Source of the DNA: Gemmatimonadota bacterium | GTDB lineage: Bacteria; Gemmatimonadota; Gemmatimonadetes; Longimicrobiales; RSA9 | NCBI GenBank assembly: GCA_040905425.1 | Contig: JBBDRO010000032.1 | Span: 93,730-157,729, forward strand | DNA length: 64,000 bases | Direction: 5' to 3' | In this document: positions 15,001-18,000 of the stretch, piece by piece | Layout: each line of letters begins with the position of its first letter | Position numbering within the stretch: the first letter of the stretch is position 1 | Position numbers: made by a program

Positions 15001-18000
15001 ACTGGGATGACGTGTTCGCGCGGTTCGACGACGTGCTGGGGCTGGAGCGCCTGCGCCTCTTCCATCTCAACGACTCGGTGGGCCAGCTCGGCAGCCGGCG
15101 CGATCGGCACGCGTGGATCGGGGATGGCACCATCGGCCAGGAGCCCTTCCGCAGGCTGATGACCGATGAGCGCTTCACGAGTGTGCCGAAGGTGCTGGAG
15201 ACGCCCAAGGGAGACGATCACGTGGCTTCGGACCTGCGCAATCTGGAGCTGCTGCGCAGCTTCCGAAGCTGATGCCATGGGCGCGCCCGCGGAGCGCCAT
15301 TTTTGCGAACAAAGGGACGAAAACCGGAAAAAAGTTGGCGGTATGGCGCTTCAGTCGAAACGCATGAAATCTGACAAACCACTGAAGGCAAACGATTTAT
15401 GAGGTTTGGCACGTGCTGGCCCGGCTCCTGCTTTATCCTCCGGCACAAAGCTGCGGCGAGCGGGAACTCCGGGGAGAGCGCCGTGGCAAAAGGCGGGCGG
15501 TCAGCTTTCGAGCGGGCCGTCCCGTCTTTTTTTGTACCTGCGTCCCTGCTGGCGCTCTGCCTGGCACCGGGGACGCTCGCCGCGCAGGGACCGCGGCTGG
15601 AGTTCCGCCTGGGCGTGGTGGCCTCGAGCGCGCTGGCCCGCGACGAAGTGGCCAGCACGCTGCTACGGCAGAGGGTGGCGGCGCCCGTCAGCCGTGAGGT
15701 GCTGGCCGGCCCCCGTCCCGCACCCGCCCTGGAGATGGCCCTGCAACTGCCGCTCCGGCCCGGGTTGGCCGCCGAACTGGCGCTCGGCTACTCGCGGAGC
15801 GCCCTCGGCGTCGAGGAGGCGGAGGGAAGCTCCTGGGACGCCGGTAACCTGTACGTGTTGCAGGGTCTGCTCGGCATCCGCTGGCAATGGCGGCCCGGGG
15901 TGGGCGTGAGCGGCGCCTTCGGGGCACTGCGCTACGGGGCGGACGGGCGGGCCTTCTTCGCGGCGGGAGGGGAGATGAATCCCGGCATCGAAACCGCGCT
16001 CGACGTGCGGCTGCCGTGGCACGACGGCCGCACCGGCGTACGTGCTTTCGCGCAGGTGCATGGCTTCAACACTCCCGCGCTACGCCGGGCGGGGGCCGCG
16101 GACGGCGGCGTCATGCGCTTCGGTGTACAGGTGACGCAGCGCTTTTTCGGCGGGAGGGGTTCATGAGCGGCGCGTTCGGGGGCCCGAGCGCCGCCGCGTG
16201 CTCGCGCGGTAGCGCTGCCTGCCGGCGCGGCCTGCGCGCCGCCTCCCGACACGTCCCGCGCGCCGCCTCCCGGCACGTCCTCGGGCTTGCGGTGGCGGCG
16301 AACCTGGGGCTGGCCGGAGCCTGCGACGCGCCCACGATCCCGGAGCGCCGGCTCGACGACACCTACGCCTTCACCCTCCCCACCGCCACCGGCGATACGC
16401 TGGTGCTGCGCTGGCCCCAGGGGTCCGTGGTGCGTGTCTGGGCCGCGGACGCCGATGCGGGTGCCCCGCTGCGCGCGGCCTTCGAGGCAGGCGCGGCGCT
16501 CTGGAACGAGCGGGCGCTGTTCGGCGAGTATCGCCTGGTGGCCGCCGCCGCGCCGGCGGAGGCCGACATCCTCCTGGCCTGGGCGCCCGGGCCGCTGCCC
16601 GTGGACACGGAGGCCTGCCCGCCCCTCACGCGACGCGGGACCACCACCTTCTGTCTACGCGACCAGGACGGCAGGAGGCGGCTCGACGTCTTTCCACTGC
16701 TCGCTGGGGAGGATCACGGGCAGGTTCGCATGCTGGTGACGTTCCTCCGGGAGGCCGGCGCGCCGCCCGCCGACCTGGCCGCGCTGGTGGCGCACGAACT
16801 GGGACACGTGCTGGGCTTGACGCGTCACTCCCCGAACCCGCTGGACCTGATGTACGAGAGTCCGGGCATGCCGCCCGCGCTCAGTCTTCGCGACGCTGCC
16901 ACGGTCCAGGTCCTCTACCATACGCGGGCCGATATCGTCCCCTGAGACGGGACGCCTCACGGGCTCGCAACCCGCCGCCGCAGGGGGGTGCCGGGTGGTG
17001 TTGGACGCGTTGACGAGGAGGGGGTACCCCGCTACATTTCTTCAGCACGGAACAGACGTGCTGGAGGGTCCATTTTTGGGCCTACAGCAATACCAGATGG
17101 GGCCGACTTCCGGGTCGGACGTCACGCCTCGCGAGAGGAAGGCGGAAAAGCCTGGAGTGGTCACCAGTCGATTACGACTGGGCTCCATAAAATACCCTTC
17201 GGTACGTCGATCCTGGACCGACCCGCGGTTAATCGCGGGTCGGTTCCTTTTGTAGGAACGCGGGCGGGCGAGCCGCGCTGCCGGGCGCCTCCGCTCCTTG
17301 CCCCCGTAGCACGGCGCGGCCACCTTGCCCGGAACCCATGCACCCCGGGACCGGTTCGCTCTCCGGATGCCCGCGTCCCGGGCCGCGCACCCTGCATGAA
17401 GGAAAGGATCCCATGTCCCGCGTTCGCGTAACGCGCCGCGTCCATTTCAGTGCGGCGCATCGCCTCGGACGCTCCGATTGGAGCGACGAGCGGAACCGGG
17501 AGGTCTTCGGCGACTGCGCCAATCCGAACTGGCACGGGCACAATTACGAGTTGGACGTGACGGTGGAGGGTCCCGTGGATCCCGCCACCGGGTTCGTGCT
17601 CGATCTGAAGGAACTGCGCAGCCTGGTCGAGGACCGCGTGGTGGCCGACGTGGACCACCGCAACCTCAATCTGGACGTAGCCTGGATGGAAGGCCTGAAC
17701 CCCACCACGGAACACCTCGTCGTGGCCATCTGGCGGCGGCTGGTGGACGCGCTGCCGGGCGAGGCCCGGCTGGTGCGCCTCGTCCTCTGGGAAACCCCCC
17801 GCAACTACGTGGAGTACGCCGGCGAATAGCCGGGCACGAGCAATGACCGAGGAACGCACGAACACCGATCTGAGCGGAGCCAGCTTTCCGGACCTCGTGG
17901 CGGAGATGCTGCGGCGCCTGGGTGAGGATCCCTTCCGCGAGGGTCTGGCGCGCACCCCCGAACGGGTGGATCGAAGCCTCCAATGGCTCACGCGCGGCTA

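Follow-up and report, generated by a model that had tools for sequence, protein, structure and literature searches.

6S RNA is described as a mimic of an open promoter that occupies the active site of the housekeeping RNA polymerase holoenzyme and is freed when the enzyme copies it into a short product RNA (pRNA), the start region of which lies at about U44 in E. coli, according to PMC3299989. The arrangement zapA-ssrS and the dicistronic unit ssrS-ygfA are on record for Proteobacteria (PMC7641849), and a 6S-like structured RNA of Actinobacteria, Ms1, which is reported in PMC9130861 to bind core RNA polymerase, was found by synteny. This well-known small RNA restrains RNA polymerase and so regulates transcription globally; its detection in newly annotated genomes depends on Rfam. 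A pRNA-induced rearrangement has been described for the 6S-1 RNA of B. subtilis. The place ahead of folE and queD-type genes is that of riboswitches of the THF, THF-II (folE motif) and preQ1 types.

In the window (the whole 64,000-nt stretch of a Gemmatimonadota genome analysed here) a spacer of 467 nt separates the gene for an M10-like peptidase from a gene of the PTPS family, which is followed by folE and then by an SDR gene (Table 1). The PTPS/QueD-family protein falls under the NCBIfam cut-offs for both PTPS and QueD. We put at roughly 90% the probability that the spacer encodes the 6S RNA of this bacterium, equipped with a promoter and a terminator of its own.

Table 1. Features of the 6S RNA locus and its neighbouring genes (positions in the window).
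Feature	Position	Strand	Remarks
M10-like peptidase gene	15887-16945		gene before the 467-nt spacer
sigma-70-type promoter	17010..17038	+	-35 TTGACG 17010-17015, 17-nt spacer, -10 TACATT 17033-17038
6S RNA (ssrS), predicted primary transcript	17045..17252	+	~208 nt including terminator hairpin; ends predicted from promoter and terminator positions
6S core	17052-17211	+	160 nt
outer closing stem (helix 1)	17055..17068 with 17195-17208	+	92.1% of cells paired
inner closing helix	17074..17082 with 17181-17191	+	97-100% of cells paired
central bubble, 5' strand	17083..17098	+	16 nt
terminal (internal) stem-loop	17099..17165	+	helices 4-8, 88.5-98.6% of cells paired
central bubble, 3' strand	17166..17180	+	hairpin AGUCG-AUUA-CGACU, extendable by flanking CC/GG
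intrinsic terminator	17215..17253	+	14-pair G+C-rich stem 17215-17246, then T run
PTPS/QueD-family gene, first downstream	17413..17829	+	Pfam PF01242, 115.3 bits
folE, GTP cyclohydrolase I	17843..18442	+	PF01227, 246.1 bits; TIGR00063, 246.9 bits

The segment 17041-17256 folds on the + strand with a free energy of -104.3 kcal/mol (z -6.2), a value equalled by 0 of 200 shuffles, and the fold of the - strand has a z of -4.5. By blastn the RNA stretch was matched in 21 of 61 genomes of the order, the bacterium's own genome counted, and after removal of one near copy (L018, close to L019) 20 sequences were aligned (A1), all of which have the promoter, the rod and the terminator in common. RNAalifold derived 44 pairs from this alignment, 21 of them with compensatory changes. 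For our own structure of 49 pairs, the share of paired cells was 89.7%, as compared with 42-51% when the partners were slid, and 25 pairs had changed on both sides versus 15.4 +- 2.3 in shuffled alignments (0 of 500 as high). A wider alignment (A3) of 75 sequences from 10 families gave 89.3% paired cells versus 42-52% with slid partners and both-side changes in 41 of the 49 pairs versus 34.7 +- 1.8 after shuffling (again 0 of 500 as high); these latter figures lean towards the structure, since A3 consists of R1 matches (see below) aligned to the model itself and its sequences are akin. Overall, this analysis confirmed a structured RNA gene on the + strand with strong covariation. The claims of the first-pass annotation concerning a structured RNA with its own promoter and terminator were upheld, and those on covariation and on presence across the order were reproduced in kind, the slight shifts in the numbers coming from different samples and a different model.

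The RNA is a rod within the ~150-200 nt range of 6S RNAs, with a closing stem, a large bubble and a terminal stem. All 14 pairs of the outer closing stem are altered on both sides among the 75 sequences, as are 17 of the 21 pairs in helices 4-8 of the terminal stem-loop, the base of which reads GGG.../...CACC and the conserved apical part GCC...GGAAGGCG. The inner closing helix, the counterpart of CuGAgCC / GGuUCaA in the Rfam 6S consensus, has on its 5' strand a U run followed by GGGCC in this genome and UUGAGCC in most relatives, and its column pair 34/188 has passed from A-U to G-C in 7 of the 75 sequences. Across the same set the 5' and 3' strands of the bubble measure 14-17 nt and 12-22 nt, respectively. 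The closing stem and the large bubble were thus recovered as first annotated, and the "branched terminal stem" was not: the branch is formed by the 3' strand of the bubble, which folds into a hairpin in E. coli too. In this genome the hairpin is stable (-11.3 kcal/mol, z -5.2), and 55 of the 75 sequences can form one of at least four pairs. We rejected it as a feature of the family, as it is strong in families f1 and f3 only, weak beyond them, and has 45-47% of its cells paired in the fitted alignment. When the core is folded as free RNA, the minimum-energy structure (-73.8 kcal/mol) has 17097-17104 joined to 17181-17188, by which the bubble is closed; the consensus fold is less stable, at -56.2 kcal/mol, or -67.0 kcal/mol when completed. 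This alternative helix (UGAAGCC/GGCUUCA) was considered as a conserved release helix and, being present in f1-f3 and not conserved in f4, was set aside as a family feature.

The promoter is the single promoter-like site found in 16600-17700, where shuffled sequence leads one to expect 0.0, and its spacing would place the transcription start at ~17044-17046. A similar promoter (TTGA[CT]-N16-19-TAnnnT, at most 75 nt upstream of the RNA) precedes the RNA at 49 of 68 loci of the class, and a terminator-like site lies 3' of it at 63 of the 68. Contigs from two RNA libraries of two studies cover, with an identity of at least 95%, 17103-17256 (5 differences) and 17087-17203 (2 differences); such contigs hold parts of the gene and say nothing of transcription, strand, ends or level. 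The letters that flank the latter match are presumably sequencing adapter, the X16 contig continues past 17256 with 51 unlike letters, and a further contig of 95 letters carries 17159-17192. The stretches 16950-17086 and 17257-17450 are left uncovered, which has no bearing on the transcript ends, and run X21 yielded no contig of the locus. We take these traces as a weak hint of expression.

A covariance model of our own (R1), built from the 20 order-level sequences, finds one match in this genome (151.6 bits, with 18.2 bits on the reverse strand of the locus). It matches 136 of the 151 genomes sampled from the phylum, with a single match in 134 of them, three in G005 and two in G109, so that one or a few genes per genome are found throughout the lineage. 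Under the stricter filters of the whole-genome search, R1 missed 4 of 71 genomes of f4, 8 of 13 of f10 and 3 of 3 of f11. This distribution across the phylum resembles that of a housekeeping gene, and the earlier statement that a lineage model recovers the RNA as one copy per genome holds in the present sample.

The RNA had been reported as invisible to Rfam, and this is indeed the case: the 6S family RF00013 gave no match at E<=10 either on 16500-17900 or in the whole genome, and the five weak matches of Rfam at that threshold on 16500-17900 are unrelated and include no riboswitch. The window RNA accordingly does not reach the RF00013 gathering cut-off of 46.4 bits. Within the phylum, RF00013 matches 13 of 151 genomes at E<=0.01, and six exceed the cut-off, three of f12 (G075, G069, G066) and three of f11 (G072, G063, G078); the first-pass annotation had assigned the genomes that pass to the same class as this bacterium, and in our sample they belong to other classes of the phylum. 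All 20 loci with Gemmatimonadota in their titles miss the cut-off as well, three of them scoring 20-29 bits. We still file the RNA as 6S, because the cut-off is the detection threshold of one model rather than a trait of the molecule itself, and the homologues in f11 and f12 pass it.

The two models converge on the same genes. In all eight genomes with whole-genome matches to both, RF00013 and R1 agree in contig, strand and place, the R1 match being nested within the RF00013 match. With laxer filters, R1 lands in the same place and on the same strand at 12 of 12 RF00013 loci (26.6-71.8 bits), a set that comprises the six above the Rfam cut-off and leaves out the locus of G002; at this thirteenth locus the two coincide as well in the whole-genome searches. 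The motif pair was scanned in 185,579 species genomes and occurred in at least 120 stretches, of which some are expected by chance with so short a pattern; among the matches listed, most titles name Gemmatimonadota, Gemmatimonadales or Longimicrobiales. Out of 20 motif loci from other taxa, four match RF00013 at 103-112 bits (Alteribacillus, Salibacterium, a Thermoanaerobacteraceae MAG and a Nitrospirae MAG). With its filters off, R1 gives exactly these four, which are canonical 6S RNAs from Firmicutes and Nitrospirae, scores of 45.0-57.5 bits and the 16 motif-matched decoys 14.4 bits or less; on E. coli ssrS it reaches only 8.3 bits (E 0.36). Homology to accepted members is therefore recognised reciprocally, by both models. 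In addition, five motifs of the Rfam consensus (CuGAgCCgA, GGG..., GCC..GGAAgC, CCCACC and GGuUCaA) occur in this order in the window RNA and its relatives, as judged by eye from the consensus printed by cmscan, alignments A1 and A3 and E. coli ssrS, so that sequence is conserved around the bubble and at the apex. From the coincidence of R1 and RF00013, the recognition of canonical members and the shared motifs, we conclude that the RNA is a diverged 6S RNA, overlooked by the Rfam model across most of the phylum; the 6S identity first annotated is thus supported at the level of sequence and structure comparison.

The position of the gene is nearly fixed within the class. Of the 65 class genomes compared, 62 (all except L021, L073 and L076) have PTPS and/or folE on the same strand downstream of the RNA, and in 59 the distance is within 400 nt; the loci were best-scoring matches together with our own choice rather than a random sample. 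The extra copies in G005 and G109 (L082, L083 and L084) have no PTPS or folE within 1.5 kb downstream, and in f9-f12 the same search was negative at all 12 loci (0 of 11 in f10-f12), where the RNA follows zapA, precedes rny or ymdB and, by a crude scan, has no promoter of its own. In the present genome rny begins only 127 nt after zapA; the 6S gene is therefore gone from that site. At 21 loci the PTPS reading frame begins 48-84 nt past the end of the R1 match. Since this gap holds the terminator too (with the ribosome-binding site ~10 nt past the terminator T run at L020), read-through from the 6S promoter would be the simplest source of PTPS-folE transcripts there, and the distance from RNA to PTPS would often be too short in the class for a separate promoter. 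The parallel that had been drawn with ssrS-ygfA, in front of pterin and folate genes, is real as synteny.

By analogy with the 6S RNAs of E. coli and B. subtilis, we propose that the folded RNA, with its closing stem, central bubble of ~15 nt per strand and terminal stem, would take the place of an open promoter in the active site of the housekeeping holoenzyme. The polymerase would then copy a short product RNA from the 5' strand of the bubble into the inner closing helix, and the RNA would be released. In the E. coli ssrS record, U44 is the last letter of GAGCCGAU, and its positional equivalent here is probably C17085, opposite which the pRNA is predicted to start, proceeding towards 17070. 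The corresponding letter is C in f1-f4 and U in f5, either of which as template makes a purine start of the pRNA possible. Transcripts that read through the terminator would probably carry PTPS-folE too, like ssrS-ygfA in E. coli, as suggested by the spacing. We also entertain, as a rather doubtful proposal, that the class-wide shift from zapA-rny into a read-through unit with PTPS-folE is no accident and represents a second independent coupling of 6S RNA with pterin/folate (GTP-consuming) metabolism, parallel to ssrS-ygfA of Proteobacteria. If this were true, cells entering or leaving stationary phase would co-regulate polymerase control by 6S RNA with their supply of folate/pterin or queuosine precursors.

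A different reading takes the RNA as a leader or riboswitch that acts in cis on PTPS-folE, with a pterin-, folate-, preQ1- or GTP-related ligand deciding between termination at 17215-17253 and read-through. It would account for the nearly fixed place of the gene, with PTPS and/or folE downstream in 62 of the 65 class genomes compared, and for the terminator in between. In the window sequence alone, 17111-17118 repeats eight letters of the terminator 3' arm (17236-17243) and could on that ground compete for the 5' arm. Such a leader is nonetheless highly unlikely, as riboswitches lie always in cis before the genes that they regulate, and homologues of this RNA stand between zapA and rny/ymdB in f9-f12, with PTPS/folE near none of the 12 loci, and as extra copies without these genes in G005 and G109. 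The RNA moreover matches, or links to, RF00013 and no described riboswitch family (none in Rfam at E<=10 on 16500-17900), and it is the whole rod that is conserved rather than a ligand pocket with a switch.

It would also be conceivable that a descendant of 6S RNA has lost polymerase binding and acts today chiefly as a stable 5' module in the PTPS-folE transcript or as a signal for its processing, in keeping with the move of the gene from zapA-rny to PTPS-folE and with a divergence that has taken it below the Rfam threshold. Conservation across the class of the motifs that flank the bubble, of bubble size and of the candidate template stretch makes such a loss very improbable; neither RF00013 nor R1 finds another 6S candidate in the genome, so the 6S function would stand vacant. 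An unrelated small RNA with a chance likeness to 6S could explain why RF00013 leaves this one unscored. That explanation is already disfavoured, and we regard it as extremely implausible in view of the graded chain of homology across families, the agreement in place and strand at 12 of 12 loci and the reciprocal recognition of canonical 6S RNAs above motif-matched decoys. A 6S RNA gene remains our preferred reading.

6S RNA itself is textbook knowledge; the novelty lies in recognising it in this lineage, in a working model and in a relocated autonomous gene joined to PTPS-folE. Our literature search returned no paper that joins 6S RNA with Gemmatimonadetes, Gemmatimonas or Gemmatimonadota, and wider surveys (Wehner 2014, Barrick 2005) might already list the phylum. 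The gap in annotation is considerable, with 6 of 151 phylum genomes past the RF00013 cut-off versus 136 found by the lineage model, and a new seed alignment would close it for a phylum of mostly uncultured soil and sediment bacteria. Once recognised as 6S, the spacer would no longer be mistaken for a riboswitch. The conserved 6S-PTPS-folE unit is a second case of 6S RNA beside folate/pterin genes and offers a way to test why ssrS keeps company with folate genes.

Compared with known systems, the RNA shares with folE/queD-type riboswitches the position before folE/PTPS and the terminator, but it has no such Rfam match at E<=10 and occurs also without PTPS/folE. Ms1 is by its description a 6S-like structured RNA too; the RNA studied here, on the other hand, is tied to RF00013 through both its sequence and its structure. 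Two mutually exclusive pairings are open to the 3' strand of the inner closing helix, which recalls B. subtilis 6S-1, and the alternative one is not conserved in f4. Much as Bacillus has the paralogues 6S-1 and 6S-2, more than one copy, either two or three, is present in some genomes of the phylum. The canonical Firmicute 6S RNAs identified here (Alteribacillus, Salibacterium, Thermoanaerobacteraceae) carry the same motif pair with the same spacing and are recognised by R1.

Unlike E. coli ssrS, the RNA scores under the reporting limit of RF00013, and in the genus-level clade of this bacterium the motif (UUGGGCC/GGCUCCA) differs from the E. coli form. Here the gene is provided with a promoter of its own and ends in a strong intrinsic terminator; for E. 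coli, PMC3299989 describes processing and Rho-dependent termination within ygfA instead. The gene zapA, which is upstream of ssrS in E. coli and likewise in basal families of the phylum, is not so placed in this genome. The likenesses concern the RNA as a whole: a rod made up of the same three parts (closing stem, central bubble, terminal stem) and encoded by one gene per genome; the same UGAGCC(G/A)A at the 5' edge of the bubble, paired with GG(C/U)UCAA and in E. coli part of the edge GAGCCGAU; the same GGG.../...CACC at the base of the terminal stem; and a small hairpin, directly before GGUUCAAGGG in E. coli, as in the 3' bubble strand here. Directly 3' of ssrS, E. coli has the folate/pterin gene fau, and at that very place this bacterium has PTPS-folE.

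In the basal families of Gemmatimonadota, zapA and rny flank the 6S RNA (f10-f12, loci L053-L060, L062, L063 and L086); in the f9 locus L076, ymdB takes the place of rny. Pfam was applied to six of these loci. A crude scan of the basal-family zapA loci found neither a promoter nor a terminator of the RNA's own, which suggests that it is co-transcribed with zapA and then processed. The source genome retains the ancestral zapA-6S-rny site without the 6S RNA: on contig C33 (locus L087, region 1477-3238), zapA is followed after a spacer of 127 nt by a gene for RNase Y (TIGR03319, 540.9 bits).

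Features around the 6S RNA gene (window coordinates) and at the zapA site (contig C33 coordinates)
Feature	Position	Strand	Remark
M10 (matrixin) peptidase-like gene	15887-16945		weak match; upstream of 6S RNA
Open frames across 6S RNA gene	16988-17431		86-147 aa (range over the three frames)
	16995-17255	+
	17042-17323	-
PTPS-family gene, folE, SDR gene	17413-19152		consecutive
zapA	1477-1782		L087

Relatives of the peptidase-like gene precede the RNA at 9 of the 13 other loci of f1, so that the upstream neighbour is conserved in this family as well. Downstream, the PTPS-family gene scores under the NCBIfam cut-offs for both PTPS and QueD; with the accompanying SDR gene, we would guess, the gene row may serve a tetrahydrobiopterin-like route rather than folate or queuosine. 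The open frames across the RNA gene are probably spurious in such G+C-rich DNA and could be miscalled as genes.

Within the RNA, positions 17181-17188 on the 3' side of the inner closing helix have two mutually exclusive partners, 17074-17082 and 17097-17104, and the predicted minimum-energy fold of the free RNA favours the one closing the bubble. A similar alternative pairing (UGAAGCC) is available in f1-f3 and absent from f4. The identical eight letters CGGGTCGG stand in the terminal stem (17111-17118) and in the terminator's 3' arm (17236-17243); judged from this repeat, 17111-17118 could compete for the 5' arm of that terminator. The repeat may be due to chance, given the G+C-rich sequence.

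Two other genomes of the phylum carry several copies of the RNA, three in G005 (L044, L082, L083) and two in G109 (L084, L085), with PTPS-folE downstream of just one copy in each. These are possible 6S paralogues, comparable to those of Bacillus, and the arrangement suggested for the basal families resembles that of Proteobacteria, in which 6S RNA is co-transcribed with zapA and processed.
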